This document shows, piece by piece, positions 1,995-31,778 of a stretch of DNA of 64,000 bases. Made by a program: the position numbers and the translations under genes. Origin of the DNA: Alphaproteobacteria bacterium (GTDB lineage: Bacteria > Pseudomonadota > Alphaproteobacteria > UBA7887); contig CBDEUQ010000003.1 of the NCBI GenBank assembly GCA_965243325.1, forward strand, positions 2,020,304 through 2,084,303, in the 5' to 3' direction. Numbering within the stretch: position 1 is the first letter of the stretch; every line of letters begins with the position of its first letter. Below the pieces are notes generated by a model that was not told the origin of the DNA, did not search any database, and was given only the letters and a program-made list of their open reading frames with translations.

Positions 1995-2513
1995 CTATGC
2001 CTTCGACCCTCGCAGGGCGGAGTGGCCGAGAGGGAGGAACAAGCGCATCGGATCGTCCGTGAGCGGGGCGAAGCCGAAGCCCTCGTAGAAGAGTTTCGCG
2101 TCGTCGTTCGCGGCGTCCACGATCAGGGCGTGCATGGCCACGGTCTCGTCCGCGGCGACGACGCGCTTGACCGCATCGGCGAGAAGCATGCGGCCGACAC
2201 CGCGCCCGTGCGCCGAGCGGTCGACCGCCAGCCGGCCGATCAGGGCGCAGGGAACCGGATGGCGCGGCAGCTTCCGGGACAGTGCCTCGGGCAGCGAGGC
2301 CAGATCGACTGCCAGCGCGCTCAGCGTGTAGAAGCCGAGCACGGCATCGACGTTGCCGGCAGTGCAGACGAACACCCGGGCGATCCGGCGCCGGACATCC
2401 TGTCCGGCCTGGCGCGCCAGGTGGCGGTCGAGTTCCGGAAGGCCGCAGGAAAACGCCCTTCGGTCATGCCGCTGGCCGAGAGGCTCGACGACCAGCGTAT
2501 CGGGGGCGGTCAA
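1995..2513 (-). CDS. GNAT-family acetyltransferase, toxin of a DUF1778/GNAT (TacAT/KacAT-like) type II TA pair
   Basis: 172 aa. GNAT acetyl-CoA motif ...HGRGVGRMLLADAVK.... Overlaps the upstream DUF1778 gene by 4 nt (ATGA). Confidence 0.75.
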   Translation of the reverse strand: MTAPDTLVVEPLGQRHDRRAFSCGLPELDRHLARQAGQDVRRRIARVFVCTAGNVDAVLGFYTLSALAVDLASLPEALSRKLPRHPVPCALIGRLAVDRSAHGRGVGRMLLADAVKRVVAADETVAMHALIVDAANDDAKLFYEGFGFAPLTDDPMRLFLPLGHSALRGSKA

Positions 2514-2797
2514 CGCGATTCGACGCGCCGGGCGTGCTCCTCCAGGGCGGCGCGGAGCCGATCGTTCGGCGGCGGCGGCTCGGCCAGCGCATCGAAGAAG
2601 CGCATCGCGGCCTCGCGGGTGAGCGCCACGGCCTCGCGCCGGCCGATGGTTGCCTCCGCGCTCTCCAACGCGCTGGACACGATGAAGGCGCTGACGGTCT
2701 TGCCTTCGACGGATGCCGCCCGCTCGATACGCCGCTTCGCCGTTTCGCTGAGCCGCAGGTTGATTCGCGCACTGCGAGCCGTGTTCGCGGGGGCCAT
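2510..2797 (-). CDS. DUF1778-family antitoxin (RHH-like), partner of the GNAT toxin
   Basis: The ORF track gives 2510..3001 with a TTG start. The internal ATG at 2797..2795 gives a 95-aa product MAPANTARSARINLRLSETAKRRIERAASVEGKTVSAFIVSSALESAEA..., typical DUF1778 length and sequence. The choice of start is an inference. Confidence 0.65.
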   Translation of the reverse strand: MAPANTARSARINLRLSETAKRRIERAASVEGKTVSAFIVSSALESAEATIGRREAVALTREAAMRFFDALAEPPPPNDRLRAALEEHARRVESR

Positions 2798-3281
2798 GGC
2801 GCCGTCCTCCCTTACCGACGCCGATGTACGTCGTTCCGGTGCCCGTCGCAAGGTCGAACCGCTTCGACGCACATCCAACGGCAGTAGTTCCCGATGCGCT
2901 CGGCCAAACCCGTTGCTTTGCGGGTCAGTTACCGCCGAAGGGGCGCGTGGCGCGGATTCAACCGAGTTTTCGACCGCTCTGTCGAATCGAAGGTCGGGCA
3001 ACCCTGGTCATGCGCTATGGCTCCTGCACTCCTCCGTTATGCCCGGACTTGATCCGTGCTCCGGCTTTGCTGGCTCGGGGACGGGCTCCACCGCAGGTTA
3101 TCGCGAACGTGCGGAGCCTCAGCATCACCGGCAGCGTGTGGACCGCCCGCGCCGAGTCGCGTCGCTCGCGGACACACCCCGCAAGCGCCTCGGTCAACGC
3201 GAGCCGGTGCGCCACCGCGCCGACGCGCAGCAGCACCAGCCCGGCACCCGACGACATCGACCCGCCCTCAATACTGGCACT

Positions 3282-3466
3282 CATTTTCTTGGGTTGAATT
3301 CTTGCGGTGAATGGCTCGCAGATCGAACGGCAGAGGGGTATCTTCGGGCATGGCGGGCGTGCCGCTTTCGTCGCCGGGGCAGAAGGTCGCTGGACAACGA
3401 ATTTCTGCCCTATGACAATGACTTACGACACGTTCGCCGTCACCTCAGCCCACCGTGAGGAATAGG
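3282..3466. repeat. Copy A of a ~175-bp direct repeat (about 80% identical to copy B at 12208..12378)
   Basis: Shared blocks ggctSgcagatcgaacggcag, atggcgggcgtgScgct and gccggggcagaaggtcgctggacaacga, then atgacaaYgacttacgMcacgtt. No conserved reading frame across the indels. Confidence 0.5.
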
Positions 3467-3875
3467 GCAGGCTAGCTTGCCGACATCCTCGAACGCATCT
3501 CAGATTGCAAGATCAACCGCGTCAACGACCTGATGCCCTGGAACTGCACGTCGCGCGAAGATCGGGAAGCCGACACCTGAACTCGCCGGGGCCGTCAGAC
3601 CGGACGTGTGTGGACGCCCCTGGTGACGCAAGCATTTTCTTCGGTCGGTTCGGTGCGCGCGGTCAGGTGCTGTCGTGTGTCCGGCCTCTCTATGCGGCAC
3701 GTCACACGCCGCGGGCCCTCATGGAGATGCGCGGATCGGGTCCATATCGCTTACGCGAGCTCGAAAGCTCTGCGTCCGGAGACTGGTTTTCCCGATCCCG
3801 TCTCGATCGACCGTTTGCCCTTGCCTTTCCTCAGACCTGCCCGCGTCCCCGACAGCGACCCGCCCGACCGCCCTC

Positions 3876-4898
3876 TCAGGCGGCGGCGGGAGCCCGGTAG
3901 CTCTCCTTCTTCGTCATCAGCGCCCAGACGATGCGCGCCATCCGGTTGGCCAGCGCCACGGCGACGAGCATGCGCGGTTTGCGCGCCAGCATCCTGGCAA
4001 GCCATGGGTCGTTCGTCCTGCCGCGCCGAGCCGCCCAGCGAACGACCGCCATGGCGCCCGTGATCAGCAGCCGCCTCAAGTCACGCTGGCCCATCTTCGA
4101 TATCTTGCCCAGGCGCGGCTTGCCGCCAGTCGTGTGCTGGCGCGGCACCAGGCCGAGCCAGGCGGCGAAGTCCCGGCCGCGCCGGAAGGTCTCCATCGGC
4201 GGCGCGAAGGACTGGACCGCCATCGCGGTGATCGGCCCGATCCCCGGCACGGTCATCAGACGGCGCGCCTCCTCGTCCTGCCGGGCCACCGCCCGGATTT
4301 CCTCTTCAAGGCCATCGATCTTCTCGCCAAGCCCGGCAATCTGGTTCAGCAGAAGGCCGGCCAGATCGTGGACCGCGTCCGGCAGATCCAAGTCCGGGTC
4401 TTCAAGCGCCGACGCCAAGCGCCCGACATGGGCCGGACCCTGGGGAGCAACGATGCCGAACTCCGCCAGATGACCGCGCAAGGCGTTGATGGTCTGGGTG
4501 CGCTGGCGTACCAGGAGATCACGCGTGCGGAACAGCATGCCCCGGGCCTGCTGCTCGACGGTCTTCACAGCCACAAAACTCATCGTCGGGCGCGATGCTG
4601 CCTCGCAGATCGCCTCCGCATCCGCCGCATCGTTCTTCTGTCGCTTGACGTAAGCCTTCACGTAGGCCGGCGGAACCAACTGCACCGCATGGCCCAGGCG
4701 GCTGATCTCGCGGCCCCAATGGTGCGCACCGCCGCAGGCTTCCATCGCGACTGTGCAGGGCTGCTGCGAGACCAGAAACCCCAGCACCTTCGCCCGGCTC
4801 AGCTTCTTCCGGAACGCGACCGATCCATCGGGCCGCGCGCCGTGAAGCTGAAAGCTGTTCTTCGCGAGATCGATCCCGATCATGCTAACCTGTTCCAT
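3876..4898 (-). CDS. IS110-family transposase
   Basis: Track ORF 3876..5057. Probable start is the ATG at 4898 (MEQVSMIGIDLAKNSFQLHG..., the usual IS110-family N-terminus). The C-terminal half carries a DEDD-type motif (...MTVPGIGPITAMAV...). Confidence 0.85.
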   Translation of the reverse strand: MEQVSMIGIDLAKNSFQLHGARPDGSVAFRKKLSRAKVLGFLVSQQPCTVAMEACGGAHHWGREISRLGHAVQLVPPAYVKAYVKRQKNDAADAEAICEAASRPTMSFVAVKTVEQQARGMLFRTRDLLVRQRTQTINALRGHLAEFGIVAPQGPAHVGRLASALEDPDLDLPDAVHDLAGLLLNQIAGLGEKIDGLEEEIRAVARQDEEARRLMTVPGIGPITAMAVQSFAPPMETFRRGRDFAAWLGLVPRQHTTGGKPRLGKISKMGQRDLRRLLITGAMAVVRWAARRGRTNDPWLARMLARKPRMLVAVALANRMARIVWALMTKKESYRAPAAA

Positions 4899-5001
4899 GG
4901 ACGCCCCTTTCCTCTCTTGGCGTTTACGACACCGCCAACTTGGCACATTGCGATGCCGTCGGGAGGGGCGTCCACTCCATCGCTTACTTGGTACCGATGT
5001 T

Positions 5002-8000
5002 ATGGATACAGTAAATTTCGACCATGAGACTCGTAGAATAAGTGACCGATTCGTCACTAAGTTCGACGCGATACCGGGATTTTGGAACTATCTTATCGGC
5101 CTTGATCGCAGTGATCTCATAGCAGAGTTGGTCCAGAATGATCTGGACCAAGGAGCGACCAAAACCGTCGTCTCATTCGGGAAGACGTGTCTGATCTGCG
5201 AAGGGAACGGGGAGCCGGTCGATCCAGAAGGCTGGCAACGTCTCCAGGTGATATCGGGCGCAGGGGATGAGGTGCCTGCCAAGCGCAGCAGGTTTGGCGT
5301 CAAGAACCACGGCCTCAAGGCTGCTTTCACGATTGGTGATGAAATCCGTCTGATGTCGGCCGGCCGGACTATTGTTCAAACGCTCTACGCCAAGGGACGC
5401 CATATGCGCCCTCATCCCGGCGCGTCAGCGCACCCAATTGAAGATCGTCAAGCGCCCACTGAGGGTTGCCGCATAATCGTACAGTATCGCGACGTAGACC
5501 TCGAGCCTACTCAAGGGGAGGCCGTCAAGTTGGATGCAGTCAGCGAGGGTGAAATCGAAACACTGTTTAGGTCAGCCTGTGCAGGCATGCCTGAACAGTT
5601 CGCGGGTGTAGTCTCGCCGGAGAACACGCCTCGGTACGAAATCGTGTTGCGGCATTGGAAGCTTGGCGAAGCGCGGTTTCAGTTCTCATGTACTCGGCCG
5701 CGCAAAGCGACCAAGCGTATTGATGTCTTCCAACGGCGTTGCGCCATTAACGGGACGTACTCCGCCCTTCCAAAACCTTTGCGAGAACGAGCAGTTCGCC
5801 GCCTCGTTCCGTTGAAAGGCGTTCTGAAGGATCGGGTTGCCGATTTTTTTCGCCGCGGGAGGCACTTCTTCATCGAGGCATCGTGGCCGATTGACGTGAA
5901 GGGAAAGCCCGGAGTTGGGACCGGGAGGTATCGCTACCCAATCGGCTACCCAGCGAATTCGCGTGAGGCGCGAACGGGACATAGCACTCATTTTAATGCG
6001 CCGTTTGCTTCGAATAACGAACGCCACGCTCCCGCATGGAACGAGGCCACGAACACCGAGTTGCGTCGAGCGTGTGAATCTCTGCTAGTCGACGTGCTTG
6101 CCCTTCACGCAATTCCACGGTGGAAAGCGAACGGGTTGAATCCTGTCGTGCCGAACACCGATACTGACAACGGAAGGGAGATCGTCCGCACGCTGCTGGA
6201 GGCACTTGTCACGAGGGGAGCATTGCCTGTCCTGAGTTGGCGGCAAGCGGCCGAAGTCGCCACAAAGGTCAAAAGGATGAGCATCAGGGCGATTGCGAGC
6301 CGCCGCCCTGCTAGAGAATTTCCAAGGAGCGAGAGGCGGTACCGGTTTGTGGTGCCGGCGTTGACTTGGGCGGAGAACACCATTGAGCCATTACTGTCGC
6401 TGTTGTGTCCAACTTGGGAGAGGCAGCTCGACCCGCGCGTCAATGCAAAAATCGTTAGCTTACTGACAGACGGGAAAACCCGTGGCTTCTGCGAGGAGTT
6501 TGTCACCTTCGACGAACAGGACGTGATCGATCGGGTGACGTCACAAGGGAATGACCACTTCGGTGCGATCGCAGACCCTGAACGTGAATTTTCCCATTTA
6601 TTCTTCGTTCGCGTGTATCTGGACCTGATTGAGTTGACGCTCGAACAAGGTGACCTCGAAGCCGGGAAAGAAGACCTCCTTCGTTCAAATTTACTTCTTC
6701 CCGATATAGCTGGTCAGGTAACGTCTATGTCGGAACTCTATTCCAACGCGTCGCTTCCATCCGATATACCTGGCCTTCACTTGCCGTCCATCCTCGATGC
6801 TGGCCTGATCACGCATGCTCTTTTTAAGCGCAGAAAGTGGAGAATTCGGAAATTTACGATCGCCGAGTTCTTGGAGAGCGATACTCTTCGGACCGCTGAC
6901 GAGCAAACTCGGAGGAAGTTCTGGAAGTGGCTTTCGCGGAATGGTCGGCATATTCGGCCGCGTGACCGACCAAAGCTCGCCGAACTCGCCGTTTGGCCGG
7001 ACGAGAACGACGACCTTTGCAGGATATCCGATCTCTGCGAGCCGCGCACGGGGCGCGTTGGTACTGTGCTTGCCGGGTTCATTAGGCGACCGCACAGGGA
7101 GGTTCGCAGTTCAAGGCTCGTTTCCGTCGGGGGCAGGGCGCGTGTCTCGGTCCGACGCACGCCAACCAAGAGCGAGATCGGGGATTGGCTTGACACAAAG
7201 TTCAGGGGATTTGAGATCGGGAGCCAACCGGATGCTGCAACGGCCGCGGAGTTGCGTCGATTCGAGGGAGACCTATGTAGTCTGCTTGAGGACAGGTCCA
7301 TTGCTCCTCTGCTCACGGCGGCTGTGTCAGCGCTACCAGCGCTTGCTCGGGACGGAGCGATGCGACTGCGCACGAAGTTGGTGTTCCCGAGCCGCGGCAA
7401 CGGACGGCTCGCTCTGCCCGACCGCTTCCTGCTCTTGGATCGACGACGTGGCGCCATGCTGGCCAAGCTCTCTCCGGCGTTGAACACACCTACTGCGGCG
7501 ATGCTTTTGGACGCATTCGACGAAGATCCCGGCAACTCCTCCGTTCTGCAACTGCGACTGGCGGAAATCTTAAGAGTCACCGAAACGGATGATGACGAGC
7601 GACGTGAACTCCGAGCGAAGCCCATCATTCCTGTGGCCGGCCAGTGGCGAGCGCCCTGTGAGCTAGCCTTCACCGGCAACAGAGGCGACCACTGGGGTGA
7701 TTGGAAGACCGGCATCTCGACTGAGGGGCTGTCGCAGGACGACCAGAGGCGGTATCGAGCTGCAGGCGTAACGTCCGCCTTGCCTAATCCGACAACGAGC
7801 CGCGCCTTTTTTGGGTGGCTCGCAACGCGGGATGAACGCGTACTTCGGCGGCATATCCCTTGCATACTGCGTCATTTCCTTCTTCCAAATGGCCCTGTTC
7901 GATGGGCTCGTGACTTCGCGGACACGCCTTGTATTCCAGTGGAAGGCCAGTACGGATTGCGACTCGTATCGTTGCAAAGTGTGCGGCGCAAACCAATTTT

Positions 8001-8538
8001 CCTGCGCGACGCGGGGGATATCGGAGATGTTATTATCCAGAATGACGGCGCGGTTTTGTTGGCCATCCACCAGGCGAAGGAGGTAGCAACGCCGATCACG
8101 GAAATGTTGCGCGAGTTGGATGTCAAGTCGCTCCGCGAAGCCCTCGGGGAACCGGAAAGCGTCGCTGGCTCGGGAGATGTCGTTCCAGTCAGAGAGGATA
8201 TTCGTACTCGCTTCGATGGACTCAGTTCTTCCCCGTTCCGGCGGACGTTCCGAAAACGACTCACTGAGTTGGGTGTCGAACTTGGGTTGCTACGCAGTCA
8301 CTGGCAACGTCGGCTGGATCTTGTCCGAGGTATTCACGTCGGTGAAGATGTAGAGGTGCGATTTCGATTCCGTGGCAAACCCTACCTACAAAAAGCCGAT
8401 GCAGGATTCGATTCCGGTACCGGCATATTCTGGATGAAACAGGGCCTTGACGCTCGCAGACTGTACGAGACTATTGCCAAACAATTGATTTTCGAACCGG
8501 CGGCGAGGCCCATCGACCTCCTTGCGCTAGTGGATTGA
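5002..8538 (+). pseudogene. Segment 1 (about 1,176 codons) of a giant gene. The N-terminal domain resembles a MutL/MORC-like GHKL ATPase. The natural reading frame is interrupted at 8529/8530 by an IS630-family insertion; the present stop at 8536..8538 is IS-derived
   Basis: Track ORF 4882..8538. Likely ATG at 5002 (MDTVNFDHET...). GHKL motif I IAELVQNDLDQGATKTVVSF (compare MutL ELVENSLDAGAT), motif II CEGNGEPV (DxGxG-like), motif III G-rich GVKNHGLKAAF. GC is visibly lower than the flanks. Frame continuity with 9679..10224 and 11513..11701 was verified by hand (see findings). Confidence 0.75.
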
Positions 8539-9609
8539 TTCCAACGTTTGGAACCCTCGGTTTCTGGCGGCGATGATGTCGTCGGGGTCCGCGATCCAGA
8601 CGAAGGGCTTTGCCTCTGTCCGGTTGTGCTCGTCGATGAAGCGCTGGATGGCGTCGCGGAGTTCGTCGACGGAGCGGAACACGCCGTGCTTGAGCCGCCG
8701 GCGCGTCAGCTTGGCGAAGAAGCCTTCGACGGCGTTGAGCCACGAGCACGAGGTCGGGGTGAAGTGGAAGGTCCAGCGCGGATGCTTCTCGAGCCATGCC
8801 CGGACCGCCTTGTGCTTGTGGGCGGAGTAGTTGTCGAGGATGGCATGGATCGGCGTCCCGGCGGCGACCGTGCGTTCGATGCGTTCGAGGAAGCGCACGA
8901 ACTCCTCGTGCCGGTGACGGGCGCTGTGCTGCGAGATCACCGTCCCCTCGAGCACATCAAGGGCGGCGAACAGCGTCGTCGTGCCGTGTCGCTTGTAGTC
9001 GTGGGTCATGGTGGCACCGCGCCCTTTCTTCAACGGCAGCCCGGGCTGCGTGCGGTCGAGTGCCTGGATCTGCGACTTTTCGTCGATCGACAGCACCGCC
9101 GCATGCGCCGGCGGCTCCACGTACAGGCCGACGATGTCGCGCACCTTGTCGACGAAGGCCGGATCGGTCGACAGCTTGAACTGACGCCAGCGGTGCGGCG
9201 CGAGACCGTGCGCCTGCCAGATCGTGCGCACCGTCGAGGCGGCCACGCCCGCGGCCTTCGCCATCGCCCGCAGTGTCCAGTGCGTCGCCTCGCCCGCCGG
9301 CGGCGTCTGCGTCAGGCGTACGATCGTCGCAACCCGTGCAGGCGACAAAGGCTTCCGGCCGGGAGGCCGTGTCTTGTCCCGCAGAAGCCCGTCGACGCCC
9401 TCTTCCATGAAGCGTTCCTGCCAGCGCCAGACGCACGTCTTCGACTTCCCCGTCGCCGCCATGATCGCCATCGTCCCCAGACCGTCGGCGCTGGCCAGGA
9501 CGATCCGCGCCCGCCACACGTGCTTCTGCGCGCTGTTGCGATCCTCAACGATCGCACGCAAGCGGTCGCGATCCTCCACCGAAACCGTGAACGAAACTCC
9601 CCGACGCAT
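8527..9609 (-). CDS. IS630-family (Tc1/mariner-like DDE) transposase
   Basis: 360 aa, ...IDEKSQIQALDR...HGTTTLFAALDV...LDNYSAHKH..., ending ...TLESIH. The TAG stop (rc of 8527..8529) lies in the flanking C-TA of the CTAG target, outside the element. Confidence 0.85.
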   Translation of the reverse strand: MRRGVSFTVSVEDRDRLRAIVEDRNSAQKHVWRARIVLASADGLGTMAIMAATGKSKTCVWRWQERFMEEGVDGLLRDKTRPPGRKPLSPARVATIVRLTQTPPAGEATHWTLRAMAKAAGVAASTVRTIWQAHGLAPHRWRQFKLSTDPAFVDKVRDIVGLYVEPPAHAAVLSIDEKSQIQALDRTQPGLPLKKGRGATMTHDYKRHGTTTLFAALDVLEGTVISQHSARHRHEEFVRFLERIERTVAAGTPIHAILDNYSAHKHKAVRAWLEKHPRWTFHFTPTSCSWLNAVEGFFAKLTRRRLKHGVFRSVDELRDAIQRFIDEHNRTEAKPFVWIADPDDIIAARNRGFQTLESIH

Positions 9610-9676
9610 CGCAACCGTCCCATGACAGATCGAACAAGGGAAACAATAAAGGACTCTTCCGTCAAATACAATCCAC
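8530..9676 (-). mobile_element. IS630-family insertion sequence (1,147 bp) in a CTAG target with TA duplication
   Basis: Left junction gcgC-TA|gtggattgattcc; right junction caatccac|TA-Gaacg. Terminal inverted repeats GTGGATTG/CAATCCAC. TA copies at 8528..8529 and 9677..9678. The reconstituted target is CTAG, the classic IS630 target. Confidence 0.8.
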
Positions 9677-9678
9677 TA

Positions 9679-10224
9679 GAACGAGCTATGGAACTGGAGA
9701 TAGCCGATCCAAGTTTCGGACGGCCGGGAGGATCTCAATTGGGTGCTGGTGACGGGGAAACGGCCGCGGAGGACACCACTGGGCAGGGACAGGAAGATGA
9801 AGGGAATGGCCGGCTCGGAGAAGCGGGAAGCGGACACTCTCCGTTTGAACCGGACCCTACGCGCAATAGGCCCAAACCCGGCCCAATCTCTTCCGAATCA
9901 GCTAGACCGCCGGGACGTGCTAAGGAACAGTCCGGTTCATCGGGCTCGGGTGGGGGCGACAGCTTTAGACGCAAACCCGATCTCGAAAAGCAACACATTG
10001 AGGAGCTAAAGCGCAGCCACTATGCCAGCCATTGCCAGATGTGCTTGTGCGAACGTTCGCCTCAAGAGTTAGCTCCAGCTGGCAGCTACATTGAGGCAGA
10101 AGAAGTACGTCAGAGCGTTGTGCATGCGCACCATACCGATTTAGTGTCGGCCGGCGGCGCACGTCACGCCGGCAACATTATTCTACTGTGCAAGTTACAT
10201 CACGACAACTACGGAAGGCAATTC
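9679..10224 (+). pseudogene. Segment 2 of the giant gene: low-complexity G/S/E-rich linker plus the first half of an HNH nuclease motif, cut by the IS256-family insertion
   Basis: In frame with 8527..8529 once the IS630 and one TA are removed (cta|gaa cga gct atg...). Carries ...HYASHCQMCLCERSP...VHAHHTDLVSAGGARHAGNIILLCKLHHDNYGRQF (CxxC...HxHH...GG...N...CxxHH). Confidence 0.7.
10217..10224. repeat. 8-bp target-site duplication (ggcaattc), left copy, IS256-family copy 1
   Basis: The same 8-mer recurs directly after the right IR at 11505..11512. Confidence 0.8.
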
Positions 10225-11504
10225 GGTGACGTAAGAATTTATGTGTCAGGTGGGAAGGGGGTACTCCCTGTGGTGACGACAACCACAAACAGGAGCACCC
10301 CGCATGTCCCAGCAAGCTGCGACGATCATGAGCCTACCCCAGGCCTTTGAGGTGGTGAAGGAGATGCAGGCAGGCGGACTGGACTGGGGCGAGGGCTACC
10401 GCCCGCTCGGCCGCCAGGCGCTGGCCGAGATCATCGAGGGCCGGATGGCCGAGGCGGTGGATCGCTGGCTCGACAACCTCGACGCCGGCGCGATGCGCGA
10501 CCGGCGCAACGGGACCTACCGCCGCTGCCTGCTGAGCGAGCTCGGCGACATCGAGCTCAACGTGCCGCGCACCCGGCACTTCTGCCCGACCGGGGTTGTG
10601 AAGAGCTACGCAAGGCGCGCGCCGGAGATCGACCGTGCCATCCTGGCCGGCTTCGTGCTGGGGCTTTCGACGCGCAAGGTGGGCGAGGTCCTGCTGGCCC
10701 TGCTCGGGCGCCCGGTCTCGGCCGCGACGGTGAGCCGGGTCTCCAAGACGCTCGACATGGCGGTCGAGGCCTTCCACCGCAGGCCGCTGAAGAACGCCTA
10801 CAAGGCGCTGATGCTCGACGGCGTGGTGCTGGCCCGCAAGACCGGCGCCGGCGCGCTCAGGAGGCCGGTCCTGGTGGCGCTCGGCATCCGCCCCGACGGC
10901 AAGAAGGAGATCATCGACTTCCATCTCGCCGTCAGCGAAGGCGCCCGCGAGTGGGAAGTGTTCCTCAACCGGCTGTACCACCGCGGGCTCACCGGCGAAG
11001 GCCTTGAGATGATCTGCGTCGATGGCGGCAAGGGCCTGCTGGCTGCCTTGCCGTTCGTCTATCCCGGCATCCCGGTTCAGAGGTGCTGGGCGCACAAGAT
11101 GCGCAACATCCTCAACAAGGTCCGCAAGGCCGACCAGGAGGCCGTCAAGGCCGATGTCCACGCCGTCATGAATGCAAAGAGCCGCCGCAAGGCCCAGAGC
11201 GCCGCCCGACGCTTCGCCGACCGCTGGCAAAGCACCTACCCCAAGGCCGTCGCCTGCCTGCGCAGCGATCTCGACGAGCTGCTCACCTGCTTCCGCTACC
11301 GGACCCTCGATGAGCGAAAGCGGGTCAGGACCACCAACGCCATCGAACGAAGGTTCCGGGAGGTCCGCAGACGAACCCGGCCCATGGGAACCTTCCAGGA
11401 CCGGACCTCAATGGACCGCGTCCTCTACGCGGTATTCATCCACGAAAACAAGTCTCAGGGAATCAGCACCCCCGTCTCCCTGACACATAACTCTTGACGT
11501 TACC
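10225..11504 (+). mobile_element. IS256-family insertion sequence, copy 1 (1,280 bp)
   Basis: Imperfect terminal IRs ggtgacgtaagaatttatgtgtca and tgacacataactcttgacgttacc (rc ggtaacgtcaagagttatgtgtca). Flanked by an 8-bp TSD. Identical over its full length to 37223..38502. Confidence 0.85.
10304..11497 (+). CDS. IS256-family (Mutator-type) transposase
   Basis: 397 aa with family hallmarks ...RNGTYRR...LNVPRTRHF... and ...QRCWAHKMRN.... Identical to 37302..38495. Confidence 0.9.
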   Translation: MSQQAATIMSLPQAFEVVKEMQAGGLDWGEGYRPLGRQALAEIIEGRMAEAVDRWLDNLDAGAMRDRRNGTYRRCLLSELGDIELNVPRTRHFCPTGVVKSYARRAPEIDRAILAGFVLGLSTRKVGEVLLALLGRPVSAATVSRVSKTLDMAVEAFHRRPLKNAYKALMLDGVVLARKTGAGALRRPVLVALGIRPDGKKEIIDFHLAVSEGAREWEVFLNRLYHRGLTGEGLEMICVDGGKGLLAALPFVYPGIPVQRCWAHKMRNILNKVRKADQEAVKADVHAVMNAKSRRKAQSAARRFADRWQSTYPKAVACLRSDLDELLTCFRYRTLDERKRVRTTNAIERRFREVRRRTRPMGTFQDRTSMDRVLYAVFIHENKSQGISTPVSLTHNS

Positions 11505-11512
11505 GGCAATTC
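11505..11512. repeat. 8-bp target-site duplication (ggcaattc), right copy, IS256-family copy 1
   Basis: Perfect match to 10217..10224. Confidence 0.8.
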
Positions 11513-11701
11513 AGCCGTGCCGGAATAAGTGCGGCTCTTCGGGACAAACCGAAGAGAATGTCGGTCTGCTACGACGGGGATTTGCACGTTAGTGGCCGGC
11601 AAATTAAACTTGAGGTGTCGGGCACGGGAGAGGTCGTGAGACTCTTCTTTACCGAGCACCACATCGCATACTGGTTGTCGCAGGAGTCAGCGTCAAATTG
11701 A
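11513..11701 (+). pseudogene. Segment 3 (62 codons plus stop) of the giant GHKL-HNH gene, downstream of the IS256-family insertion
   Basis: Continues the frame ...GRQF|SRAGISAALRDKPKRMSVCYDGDLHVSGRQIKLEVSGTGEVVRLFFTEHHIAYWLSQESASN* when one TSD copy is removed. Stop at 11699..11701. Confidence 0.6.
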
Positions 11702-12207
11702 AATGCGAAGTTTTGCGATCTTACTTTTCCGCGGAACGGCGTGTTGATTGGTTAATTTCGGGAGCGCGAACTCTCGCGCGCGGCGCCGTTGGAGCGTCAC
11801 CCTTTGAGATTTTCTGTGCCTTGGTTGGGGGTTGAAGGGTCTCGTTTTTTTTGCAGTTCGCCGCGGCGGTCAGGGTTTCGGGGCAGCGAGGCGCCCGGCC
11901 AGCATTCGGATCTCCAGCGTCTCGGTTACCGCTAGCTTGGACAAATGGTCGCGGCGTAGCGCGTAGCGGTCGTCGGCATCGTTCCGCGGATCCGGCTTCG
12001 CCGGCCCGAGGACAGGCTCCCGTGCGCGTGATCGAGAACATGCGGAAGTGCAGCGTCGTTGGGAGCGTATGCACCAACTGCTCCGGCTCGCGCCATTCCC
12101 CGATGCATCCCGCAGGCGCTTTGGCCGGGCCGAGCCGGCCATCCGCGTCCCGCAGGGGCACCATTCCGCCGTTCGACGAAATCAGACCGCCCGGAAAATC
12201 GGCGCTC

Positions 12208-12378
12208 ATGCTCTTGCGTTTGACGGCTGGCAGATCGAACGGCAGACGAGTACTTCCGTAATGGCGGGCGTGGCGCTCTCGTTGCCGGGGCAGAAGGTCG
12301 CTGGACAACGATTTTCGACCTCATGACAACGACTTACGCCACGTTTACCGTTACCTTGACCGACCGTGGCGTATAAGG
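12208..12378. repeat. Copy B of the ~175-bp direct repeat (partner of 3282..3466)
   Basis: See copy A. Contains an 11-bp inverted repeat cttacgccacg...cgtggcgtaTaag. Confidence 0.5.
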
Positions 12379-12558
12379 CGGGCGAACATTCGTTGACCCT
12401 TAAACTTTACGAGAAAGTCGCCGGAGACCTCATTTCACGGTCTGTGCCGTCTGCGAATTTCCGCAATGGAAATACTAGCCGCCGGAGGCCGGGGATTCCT
12501 CCAACGAAAAGGATTCGAACCCGGCCGGGAGGAAAGTGGCGGCGGGTCTCTTCGGTGT

Positions 12559-13434
12559 TCACGGTCCGTCTTGCTCCTTGTGGAACGTGTAGAGGCGGGT
12601 GAAGTCGGCGCCGGGCATGGCCCGCTTCATGGCGCGCAGGGTCTCGCCGACGGTGCCGCCCACCGGCGCCCGTTGGCCGGCATCCTGGACGGCGGCGAGG
12701 AACAGGTCGACGTCCTTCGACAGCAGGTCGATGGTGAAGCCGGCGTCGAAGGTGCCGGTGGCGACGCGCGTCGGGAACTTGTCGCTGGTCGCCGTGTTCC
12801 GCCCCGTCGACACGTTGAGCACGGCGATCATCGTCTCGAGATCGAGGCCCTGCGCCTCGCCGAACGCCACCGCTTCGGTCGTGGCCGTCATGGAGGCGGC
12901 CGACAACACGTTGTTGAGCAGCTTCATCGCCTGGCCCTGGCCGGGCTCGGCGCCGACGTGGAACAGGTTCCGCGCCATGACGCCGAGCGTTTCCCGGTGC
13001 GCTTCGAAGCGCCCGGCGTCGCCGGAGACCATCATCGCCAGCGTGCCTTCGGCGGCGCCGCGGGTGCCGCCGCTCACCGGCGCGTCGAGGTAGGCGATGC
13101 CCGCGTCCGCAAGGGCGCGGGCGACCGCCCCTGCCGCCTCCGGCCCGATCGTCGAGTGGTCGGCGAGGCAGCGCGTCCGGCTTCCGGCGGCGGCGGCGAT
13201 TTCGCCGACGACCGCCCGGACCGCGGGTCCGTCGGGCAGCGACAGGAGCACGAGGTCGGCGGCGTCGGCGACGGCGGCCGTCGACTCGCACACCCGGGCG
13301 CCCGCCGGCGCCCGCGCGGCGGTGCCGGCGGCGTCGTACACCGCGAGCGCGTATCCGGCGTCGGCGAGGCGGCGCGCCATGCGGCCCCCCATTTCGCCGA
13401 GTCCGACGAACCCGATGACCTCGCTGTCGCTCAT
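12559..13434 (-). CDS. NAD(P)-dependent 3-hydroxyisobutyrate dehydrogenase-family oxidoreductase (HIBADH / 2-hydroxy-3-oxopropionate reductase-like)
   Basis: 291 aa. N-terminal IGFVGLGEMGGRMARRL Rossmann motif. Family signatures ...DAPVSGG... and ...KLLNN.... Confidence 0.8.
   Translation of the reverse strand: MSDSEVIGFVGLGEMGGRMARRLADAGYALAVYDAAGTAARAPAGARVCESTAAVADAADLVLLSLPDGPAVRAVVGEIAAAAGSRTRCLADHSTIGPEAAGAVARALADAGIAYLDAPVSGGTRGAAEGTLAMMVSGDAGRFEAHRETLGVMARNLFHVGAEPGQGQAMKLLNNVLSAASMTATTEAVAFGEAQGLDLETMIAVLNVSTGRNTATSDKFPTRVATGTFDAGFTIDLLSKDVDLFLAAVQDAGQRAPVGGTVGETLRAMKRAMPGADFTRLYTFHKEQDGP

Positions 13435-30069: not shown

Positions 30070-31778
<1,709 letters not shown>

Follow-up and report, generated by a model that had tools for sequence, protein, structure and literature searches.

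Gene content and boundaries of the island

The DNA analysed here, a stretch of 64 kb referred to as the window, carries a 9.7-kb accessory island that takes the place of 41 bp in the spacer separating tacA from the 3' end of a gene for an NAD-binding dehydrogenase. The block is a pile-up of insertion sequences, comprising an IS66 remnant, IS110, IS630, IS256 and two IS1380 copies, around one large disrupted gene. Its features are the following:

2871..12573, no strand: accessory island, 9.7 kb, absent from close relatives (blastn of L100, L101 and L102 against the window)
2871..3057, no strand: island DNA, 187 bp, between the break of copy A and the junction; matched neither by the IS1380 profile nor by IS1380 right ends
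3058..3471, minus strand: IS1380-family copy A, a 5' fragment with left inverted repeat, leader, frameshifted first ~85 codons and a ~33-nt segment shared only with copy B
3289..3301, minus strand: 13-nt insertion in copy A, disrupting the transposase frame just past the start (nhmmer and pairwise alignments)
3349..3443, minus strand: leader rod hairpin of copy A, holding the identical blocks noticed earlier (folding and family-wide covariation)
3452..3471, minus strand: left inverted repeat of copy A, CCTGCCCTATTCCTCACGGT, aligning with the IRL of intact relatives; CTAG flank at 3472-3475
3476..3580, plus strand: remnant of an IS66-family transposase C-terminus, LADILERISDCKINRVNDLMPWN... (Pfam PF13817 DDE_Tnp_IS66_C, E=1.4e-4, under the gathering score)
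3876..4898, minus strand: IS110-family transposase gene (Pfam PF01548 and PF02371)
5047..11701, plus strand: large gene of a ~1,420-aa protein family (blastn of L103 and L104, three collinear pieces at 79-82%)
8529..9673, minus strand: IS630-family element, filling a gap between collinear large-gene pieces (Pfam DDE_3 and HTH)
10225..11504, plus strand: IS256-family element with inverted repeat, in a gap between large-gene pieces (Pfam Transposase_mut, E=9e-76)
11722..12382, minus strand: IS1380-family copy B, a 661-bp internal-deletion derivative retaining both ends
11991..12029, minus strand: extra segment of copy B, net ~34 nt, that follows codons FSIT, stands as an insertion against the nhmmer profile and also occurs in copy A (3058-3090)
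12260..12354, minus strand: leader rod hairpin of copy B (folding and leader alignment)
12383..12573, no strand: island DNA, 191 bp, from copy B's left inverted repeat to the junction; no IS1380 profile match

The limits of the island were obtained by comparison with L100, L101 and L102, whose flanks match the window at 94-97% and which have neither the island nor a copy of the repeat, only 41 bp of unrelated sequence. In blastn, L100 1-10861 corresponds to window 23472-12574 (96.9%) and L100 10903-13773 to window 2870-1 (97.4%); the junctions lie at 2870/2871 and 12573/12574, ~190 bp outside the IS1380 remnants. GC content is 0.53-0.66 inside the island and 0.69-0.77 outside. No convincing terminal inverted repeats or target duplication were found at the island ends (2871 and 12573). 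The stretch 12383-12573 contains a tRNA-T-loop-like sequence, GGTTCGAATCC, which was considered as an att remnant and discarded, as ARAGORN reported no tRNA and Rfam nothing credible. The idea that the 187 bp past the break of copy A represent its diverged right end was supported neither by alignment nor by the IS1380 profile.

Among the other elements, the IS66 remnant is interrupted at CTAG, where copy A inserted. The IS110 element spans ~3600-4980, with imperfect inverted arms at 3610-3628 and 4957-4975, and lies immediately upstream of the large gene, whose first ~45 nt show no similarity to L103 or L104. This gene is split by IS630 and IS256 into 5047-8528, 9674-10224 and 11507-11701. Some sources name members of its family 'HNH endonuclease signature motif containing protein'; none of 254 homologues carried a Pfam domain, and the gene itself gave no Pfam or PADLOC match. 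The transposase genes of the two interrupting elements occupy 8527-9609 (IS630, minus strand) and 10304-11497 (IS256), and the latter element is flanked by 8-bp target duplications (GGCAATTC, plus strand) at 10217-10224 and 11505-11512. A third IS1380 left end, seemingly cut by IS256, had been suspected at 11531-11512, but the family profile was blank there, and these positions belong to the large gene, of which they form the 3' end.

Composition of the direct repeat

A sequence-only reading of the window had noticed an unexplained direct repeat of ~175 bp and ~80% identity bracketing the island. The repeat is real: a search within the 64-kb window measured 172 nt at 81-83% identity, in direct orientation, as one segment of 131 nt (3342-3472 against 12253-12383, 81%) and one of 41 nt (3300-3340 against 12212-12252, 83%), offset by a 1-nt indel. 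Every one of the claimed identical blocks was found, including a 28-mer identical in both copies (TCGTTGTCCAGCGACCTTCTGCCCCGGC, minus strand) that occurs exactly twice in the window, the expectation from 100 shuffles being 0. The limits proposed for the similarity (3282 and 12208) have to be corrected, because on the minus strand the match runs on into coding sequence to ~3058 and ~11991, for a total of ~415 nt. The family start codon lies inside the repeat unit, and the statement that the unit is not a conserved CDS fails for its inner third, which corresponds to the beginning of a transposase gene, now frameshifted, so that the unit is partly coding. An inverted repeat is indeed present at the end of copy B, not of the 11 bp reported but as a perfect 9-nt pair (12335-12343 and 12365-12373), while the T-run located by the earlier reading at 11795-11830 is actually at 11838-11853 on the plus strand, in the right-end (3' non-coding) part of copy B.

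The unit consists of a left terminal inverted repeat, a structured leader and the first transposase codons. We consider it very probable that the repeat stems from one IS1380-family insertion sequence, present twice in degenerate form on the minus strand, and represents its left ends. Since these copies sit within a 9.7-kb IS pile-up, the repeat is ordinary mobile-DNA debris and not an integration scar.

Structure of the two remnants

A profile of 44 full-length relatives was searched against the window with nhmmer. Window 3475-3091 matched profile positions 1-368 (E=5e-59, copy A), the left part of copy B (12383-11928) matched positions 4-428 (E=8e-63) and its right end (11912-11759) matched positions 1425-1580 (E=1.5e-9). 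Blastn against the intact elements gave a consistent picture, copy A aligning to the ISs of L001 and L002, and copy B to positions 15-361, 377-429 and 1428-1617 of the L001 IS. At the protein level, Pfam PF13701 was found in the copy A ORF 3015-3284 (minus strand) with E=7e-11 and 41.4 bits, over profile positions 10-73 and above the cut-off of 34.7, and in copy B with E=1e-6 and 27.7 bits, under the same gathering score of 34.7.

Copy A has its left repeat, CCTGCCCTATTCC, with the tip at 3471 in the alignment of 75 leaders, and an ATG start codon at 3351-3349 on the minus strand. Because the 13-nt insertion disrupts the reading frame, the ORF 3015-3284 starts at an internal ATG. Neither alignment nor the IS1380 profile revealed a right end; everything beyond codon ~85 is lost, so that ~75% of the element is absent, and CTAG flanks the copy on the left-repeat side only. 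As a query against plasmid DNA, copy A gave no match.

Copy B retains ~455 nt at its left end and ~190 nt at its right end, with ~1 kb of transposase sequence deleted in between. Its left repeat is CCCGCCTTATACG, with the tip at 12382, its right repeat is degenerate, and a mutation has turned its start codon into ATT (12262-12260). At the C-terminal end, the peptide RMLAGRLAAPKP corresponds to the family sequence FRMLAGRLAASGP. TTCG flanks one side, to be compared with a degenerate and uncertain right junction.

Since both copies are frameshifted and the start codon of B is mutated, neither can encode a transposase. Tblastn of the L002 transposase against the window recovered residues 7-81 and the last 14 residues only; the window copies thus keep only the N-terminal ~15% of the protein, and a complete DDE catalytic domain is lacking in both. 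Moreover, the ~34-nt extra segment is absent from all of the 100+ collected relatives, and marks copies A and B as one sublineage. One possible origin is an in-frame insertion of 36 nt with a later loss of 2 nt. Its interpretation as a mobile insert was dropped, the pattern being unmatched in 102 loci and in viral contigs.

Relationship to the IS1380 family

The IS1380 family is widespread and related to piggyBac; its type element comes from Acetobacter pasteurianus and ISEcp1 is a distant member. PF13701 (DDE_Tnp_1_4) is the Pfam entry for the transposase of the ISfinder family IS1380. Among annotated relatives, the closest share 62% identity with the L002 transposase; they are named 'IS1380 family transposase' and are found on plasmids of Komagataeibacter, Bradyrhizobium and Methylocystis; the one plasmid leader examined, from Komagataeibacter, shows the same leader motifs. 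Intact elements in L001 and L002 are homologous to the window copies at the DNA level, and that of L002 has an IRL/IRR pair with CTAG on both sides. Intact relatives from genomes and metagenomes have the same ends and the same leader as the window copies, and in 100+ relatives the leader unit always lies between the IS1380 inverted repeat and the transposase start. An exact 21-mer scan gave two genome matches, in intact elements, and none in metagenome and viral contigs.

The window copies share with the family a PF13701-type transposase N-terminus and ends that start with CC and carry the inverted repeat CCCGTCTTATTCAC; both left repeats, with CC tips, align with this consensus of 75 leaders. 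Intact relatives have a single ORF of ~446 aa in a total of ~1.65-1.8 kb, possess a right repeat that pairs with the left one and show 4-bp target duplications, matching flanks (TTAC/TTAC, TTAG/TTAG, CTAG/CTAG, ATAG/ATAG) being observed at 12 insertions of two multi-copy elements. In contrast, the window copies are dead fragments, A lacking ~75% of the element and B ~1 kb internally besides its mutated start codon, and they carry the ~34-nt segment seen in no relative. Because both are remnants, they are members of the family by descent and not functional elements. A third truncated family copy, located on L003, an unrelated contig, ends at nearly the same point (to within ~12 nt) and is joined to integrase-like sequence.

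Origin of the repeat and of the block

The earlier reading had offered att-like integration repeats, termini of a decayed larger mobile element or a regulatory/sRNA module as possible explanations. Under the first of these, one copy would come from the target and the other from the integrating element, and the two copies do lie in the same orientation close to both edges of the lower-GC block, like the att sites of genomic islands. They are near those edges but not at them: the junctions fall ~190 bp past the IS remnants, that is 412 bp and 191 bp past the units as first delimited. Furthermore, a single copy should mark the empty site, and none is present in L100, L101 or L102; the copies are only ~80% identical, against ~94% for the flanks at neutral sites; no integrase-type domain occurs among the scanned island ORFs; and each copy is internally an IS, namely an IS end followed by a transposase gene. 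The empty-site comparison excludes an att origin. A host RNA regulator (regulatory RNA, riboswitch or sRNA gene) present in front of two paralogues through duplication, independently of mobile elements, would agree with a unit that precedes a pair of similar ORFs and has a stable predicted fold (z -3.5 to -5.1), and the best-conserved part is in fact structured, but it is the leader of the IS itself: the downstream ORFs are transposase fragments, the unit has that constant position next to an IS1380 end in its 100+ relatives, and no Rfam family was recovered on either strand even at E<=10. An independent host module is scarcely credible.

That the repeats are termini of decayed mobile elements was correct, though of two separate small IS1380-family copies, since both are left ends in the same orientation and not the two ends of one island-spanning element. 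A related possibility is a composite transposon, with the two IS1380 copies as arms carrying the large gene and the island being that transposon. The copies belong to one sublineage with a common segment found nowhere else, have the same orientation and bracket the large gene, and in L103 another IS1380-family element lies ~80 bp upstream of the homologous gene. However, the island runs ~190 bp past each remnant, the outer end due from copy A (a right inverted repeat) is missing, no target duplication surrounds the island, and arms that differ by ~20% speak against a unit active in the recent past. As for the L103 element, its leader differs, its transposase has 459 aa (446 aa in the window family) and it gives no DNA match to window 3475-5046; for these reasons it appears to be an independent insertion. 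A composite origin is quite improbable. It is also unlikely that the copies derive from a MITE-like non-autonomous IS1380 derivative spread in trans, instead of from two full-length insertions that decayed independently. In favour of such a derivative, copy B is only 661 bp long with both ends and no functional transposase, as in MITEs and internally deleted ISs, copies A and B have the derived segment in common, and the L003 copy breaks close to the same point. Yet a short element with both terminal repeats and no transposase is represented by copy B only, whose right terminus is degenerate; copy A lacks a right end; neither A nor L003, the latter continuing into integrase-like sequence, has the deletion junction of B (around 11912-11927); the window holds 2 copies with no target duplication seen; and exact-pattern scans gave the leader only in intact elements, or nothing.

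Two degenerate IS1380-family insertions thus remain our preferred reading. Window and L100 differ at 5.4% of third-codon positions and at 6.1% of intergenic positions, and copies A and B by ~20%. As the latter value is well above the ~6% neutral divergence of the flanks, the copies diverged before the block arrived. The 9.7-kb block would have entered the dehydrogenase-tacA spacer as a unit, presumably pre-assembled; at the least it came from elsewhere. Its two IS1380 remnants had by then already diverged by ~20% and did not arise from that entry. For annotation, an unexplained island-bracketing repeat becomes two IS1380 pseudo-elements, a gain of small biological importance, and the 9.7-kb IS pile-up is resolved to the base, with its empty site verified.

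A covarying hairpin in the IS1380 leader

The left-end leader of this IS family is ~120 nt long, between the left inverted repeat and the transposase start, and is better conserved than the transposase. The 175 bp of the repeat are the best preserved part of the remnants because the leader is under stronger constraint than the protein, and the leader stands out because a rod hairpin, supported by family-wide covariation, ends at the start codon. This is a ~95-nt three-tier rod. In its outer stem of 12-13 bp, a box lying ~35-48 nt inward of the IS tip pairs with the 13 nt that directly precede the start codon (GGCGGATGTGGCG and CGCCACACCCGCC, respectively). For copy A the minus strand was predicted to fold at -44.6 kcal/mol (z -5.1) and the plus strand at -41.9 (z -3.5); for copy B the corresponding values were -38.9 kcal/mol (z -4.0) and -42.7 (z -5.0).

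We evaluated the stem over 69 distinct leaders (75 aligned, including copies A and B), a sample of IS1380 elements whose transposases share 59-88% identity with the L002 query, together with a single plasmid copy from Komagataeibacter. The 12-bp stem consists of standard pairs in 98.3% of cases, compared with 32-56% in slid controls, and none of 500 shuffles reached the observed score. Four pairs have changed on both sides, with pair types including GC:38/AU:28 and UA:48/CG:14. The rod topology was recovered in 69/69 folds, with mean z-scores of -4.7 and -3.8 on the two strands. The indications for one strand or the other conflict. In the outer stem, wobble changes (132 A.C against 12 G.U on the sense strand) favour the antisense strand, whereas those of the inner stems (162 against 80) favour the sense strand, and the minimum free energies of the two strands are indistinguishable (p=0.11).

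The repeat matched no Rfam family: with Rfam 15 there was no match in the window at gathering scores, nothing credible over either copy on both strands at E<=10, and nothing at the leader of 8 related loci at E<=1. No such leader element was found in Rfam or in the literature searched. A consensus scan found a sole sigma-70-like promoter, at 3391-3419 on the plus strand, within the hairpin and facing outward.

Possible role of the leader

The leader hairpin is probably a translational or antisense control element of the transposase. The narrower proposal, that the rod acts as a functional RNA occluding initiation and/or forming an antisense RNA, we put forward as a tentative one. In transcripts entering from the IS end, the hairpin would block the transposase initiation region; an antisense transcript might also form the hairpin and control transposase translation, in the manner of IS200 and IS10. 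Wobble pairing in the outer stem, with its G.U bias, suggests the antisense mechanism, and since the hairpin folds on either strand it could do both. A DNA-level role, as a palindromic protein-binding site, may also be envisaged.

IS10 is controlled by RNA-OUT and fold-back inhibition. In IS200, the transposase is controlled by a 5'UTR hairpin and by the antisense sRNA art200 (PMC4513863). In common with these elements, the IS1380 left end has a conserved stem-loop that overlaps the point where transposase translation begins and can fold on either strand. On the other hand, the transposase families and sequences are unrelated, and the IS1380 structure, predicted from sequence alone, is a ~95-nt three-tier rod closed by a long-range stem of 12-13 bp. 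Dead copies that keep the hairpin and the N-terminal DNA-binding part, such as those in the window, could persist as trans-acting dampers of intact relatives. The covarying left-end hairpin is a testable candidate for how the IS1380 family limits its own expression. The leader is also a possible seed for an RNA or DNA motif model flagging IS1380 ends, including decayed ends that protein searches barely detect.

Identity of the direct repeat

The sequence-only reading had described a direct repeat of about 175 bp at 3282..3466 and 12208..12378. This repeat is real: a search of the window paired 3342-3472 with 12253-12383 (131 nt, 81%) and 3300-3340 with 12212-12252 (41 nt, 83%), and a 28-mer that the copies share without mismatch has exactly two occurrences in the 64 kb, where none is expected by chance. 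Both named stretches match, but their inner limit was misplaced, as on the minus strand the similarity runs on to ~3058 and ~11991, about 415 nt in total. Both copies (A, 3058-3471; B, 11722-12382) lead straight into a minus-strand ORF that encodes a match to the N-terminal part of PF13701 (DDE_Tnp_1_4), the Pfam family of IS1380-family transposases (E=7e-11 for A, E=1e-6 for B). The finding is an ordinary one, two IS1380-family pseudo-elements in an IS-riddled, horizontally acquired block (2871-12573).

When one genome per species was scanned, the conserved 21-mer turned up at two loci, in an alphaproteobacterial MAG (L001) and in a Defluviicoccus MAG (L002), both with the same ~120-nt upstream sequence followed by an almost complete transposase ORF (446 aa in L002; 428 aa in L001, where it starts at GTG and the family ATG is ATC). 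The L002 element runs from CCCGCTTTATTCATCGCGG to ...CCGAATAAGTCGGG, with CTAG on either side. Independently of L002, the IS ends are fixed by two multi-copy metagenome elements (12 insertions), in which identity ends exactly at the CC...GG tips and the 4-bp duplications match (TTAC/TTAC, TTAG/TTAG, CTAG/CTAG, ATAG/ATAG). A metagenome scan gave 80 further loci, whose transposases share 59-88% identity with the query. The family start codon (MTEDSLLPFDLPA..RKKVTADFGGGLISS) falls within the repeat unit, which, once the ends and start codon of the relatives are mapped onto the window, comprises left inverted repeat, leader and the first ~20 codons.

Positions obtained from the relatives, all on the minus strand
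3471: left inverted repeat tip, copy A (CTAG at 3472-3475)
12382: left inverted repeat tip, copy B
3351-3349: start codon of copy A, ATG
12262-12260: start codon of copy B, mutated to ATT

State of the two copies

The window was searched with a nucleotide profile of 44 full-length IS1380-family relatives, and blastn results agree.

Profile matches and lesions, all on the minus strand
3475-3091: copy A, profile positions 1-368
12383-11928: copy B, left part, profile positions 4-428
11912-11759: copy B, right part, profile positions 1425-1580
3289-3301: frameshifting insertion of 13 nt in copy A

Given its two separate matches, copy B is a 661-bp internal-deletion derivative, in which the region of the stop codon (…RMLAGRLAAPKP*) is retained, as is a right end, degenerate, at ~11722. 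The T-run and short ORFs reported just inside copy B are present, the T-run at 11838-11853 (plus strand), and both lie within this right-end segment. Of copy A just a 5' fragment is left, without a right end. After the codons FAIT/FSIT both copies carry an extra segment of ~34 nt (A 3058-3090, B 11991-12029), which was found in none of the relatives collected, and for this reason A and B belong to one sublineage despite ~20% divergence.

On an unrelated metagenome contig, one more truncated copy of this IS, the third (L003, 4803-5300), breaks at most ~12 nt from the end of A and from the site of B's extra segment (after FAIAC(G/R)YED); read by eye, the sequence joined to the break resembles a tyrosine recombinase C-terminus. 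The common break point is either a fragile spot or a coincidence.

A conserved leader hairpin

The best-conserved part of the repeat is its non-coding part. Near-invariant in an alignment of 75 leaders are a flanking CTAG, the left inverted repeat CCCGTCTTATTCAC, a box (G/T)G(G/A)CGGATGT(A/G)GCG ~35-48 nt from the tip, and GCCACACCCG(C/T)CATG, which adjoins the start codon. The tip-proximal and start-codon boxes pair as a covarying outer stem of 12-13 bp: standard pairs make up 98.3% of cells in the alignment of the antisense strand and 32-56% in slid controls, the score was reached by 0/500 shuffles, and four pairs changed on both sides (e.g. GC:38/AU:28, UA:48/CG:14). All 69 distinct leaders folded into the same three-tier rod, with very different interior sequences, at a mean z-score of -4.7 on the antisense and -3.8 on the sense strand. 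These results, from loci L001-L099 (alignments A7 and A8), cover the IS1380 lineage with transposases 59-88% identical to the query and one Komagataeibacter plasmid copy (L105), annotated as IS1380 family, which has the same leader boxes. The Rfam search suggested by the sequence-only reading matched no family to the leader, and the hairpin is the sole, modestly novel by-product of this analysis.

Leader rod hairpin (~95 nt, between left inverted repeat and start codon)
3349-3443: copy A
12260-12354: copy B
409-503 of L105: Komagataeibacter plasmid copy

The evidence on the strand is divided. In the outer stem the non-Watson-Crick cells are mostly A.C in sense, that is G.U in antisense (132 vs 12), which points to the antisense strand and to which the RNAalifold gap corresponds (-18.4 kcal/mol antisense, -0.9 sense); in the inner stems the G.U pairs point to the sense strand (162 vs 80), and in minimum free energy the two strands show no difference (p=0.11). 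IS10 is controlled by fold-back inhibition and RNA-OUT, an arrangement that the leader architecture resembles. It also resembles that of IS200, where a 5'UTR hairpin and the antisense RNA art200 form the control device (PMC4513863). By analogy with these two elements the hairpin would act as an IS control device; alternatively, the palindrome may be a putative protein-binding site at the DNA level.

A sigma-70-like promoter (TGGACA-17-GACAAT, 3391-3419, plus strand) lies in the hairpin loop and 3' arm, opposite in strand to the transposase; it is directed outward, through the left inverted repeat, and takes in part of the 28-mer that A, B and L001 share unchanged. The central 21-mer of that 28-mer is exact in L002 too. 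Many family members, judged by eye, also show, immediately ahead of the 5' box, a small hairpin with a short run of T after it (columns ~45-70 of alignment A7, for instance L016 401-470 and L043 573-640); the hairpin overlaps the left inverted repeat at its inner end. The arrangement could be a candidate terminator of transcription entering the IS.

Contents of the block

The closest homologues of the long ORF, at loci L103 and L104, align with three collinear pieces of the window, so the island core is a single gene for a ~1,420-aa protein, split twice.

Features of the block
5047-8528, 9674-10224, 11507-11701, plus strand: large gene (L103 8001-12263, L104 4416-8678)
8529-9673: IS630-family element, interrupting the large gene
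10225-11504: IS256-family element, interrupting the large gene, with 8-bp duplication
~3600-4980: IS110-family element, immediately upstream of the large gene's 5' end
3476-3580, plus strand: IS66-family transposase C-terminal stub (PF13817, E=1.4e-4, weak match)

The protein belongs to a widespread family with 254 homologues, of which the few that are named are alphaproteobacterial; 'HNH endonuclease signature motif containing protein' is the name given to some. No Pfam or PADLOC match was obtained for it. The IS66 stub, with copy A on one side and the IS110 element on the other, is truncated at the CTAG that served as insertion site for copy A, which shows, as far as the weak match allows, a nested IS-into-IS insertion. 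The right end of copy B lies ~20 bp past the large gene's stop codon. The IS1380 profile matched neither of the stretches at the two island ends, 2871-3057 and 12383-12573. The right-edge stretch (191 bp) contains a tRNA T-loop-like GGTTCGAATCC, and neither ARAGORN nor Rfam found a tRNA or tmRNA there.

In another genome, a different IS1380-family element (L103 6431-7930, 459-aa transposase, unrelated leader) precedes the homologue of the large gene by ~80 bp, in divergent orientation, a position comparable to that of copy A were IS110 taken out of the window. This may reflect recurrent association or target preference.

Junctions and origin of the block

Through 90% cluster members of the flanking dehydrogenase, three related island-free contigs were reached. 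L100 is 97% identical to the window on both sides (L100 1-10861 = 23472-12574; L100 10903-13773 = 2870-1) and has 41 bp in place of 9,703 bp. L101 has the same junctions over the stretch that it covers; L102 (94%) also lacks the island, and its tacA/tacT region is rearranged, so that the left junction is not comparable. Since the island is absent from all three, the empty state is ancestral and the block was gained in the window's lineage.

The sequence-only reading had offered att-like repeats left by integration, terminal repeats of a decayed larger mobile element, or a repeated regulatory/sRNA module. An att-type origin is excluded by this comparison, because the junctions lie ~190 bp outside each remnant, the repeat is absent from the empty site, and divergence of window and L100 is 5.4% for third codon positions and 6.1% for intergenic DNA, so that copies made at or after insertion could not have diverged by ~20%. 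The same contrast argues that the remnants were already old when the block arrived. A composite transposon, with A and B as arms bounding a mobile unit, is unattractive, because copy A lacks the outer end due from it and the limits of the island are not IS1380 termini. Decayed mobile-element termini with a regulatory module are the part of the earlier interpretation that stands.

A TacA/TacT pair (DUF1778 antitoxin/GNAT toxin) directly adjoins the island (1995-3001, minus strand; L100 10976-12015; L102 2860-4071). In L102 tacA is truncated and other genes replace tacT, so the spacer beside the pair is variable within this lineage.

Elsewhere in the window

The 5_ureB_sRNA family is an antisense RNA over a urease gene in Helicobacter. 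Its Rfam entry (RF02514, '5' ureB small RNA') matched 30221-30508 on the minus strand (100 bits, E=5e-25); in this 70%-GC sequence the match may reflect not an sRNA but conserved urease coding sequence.
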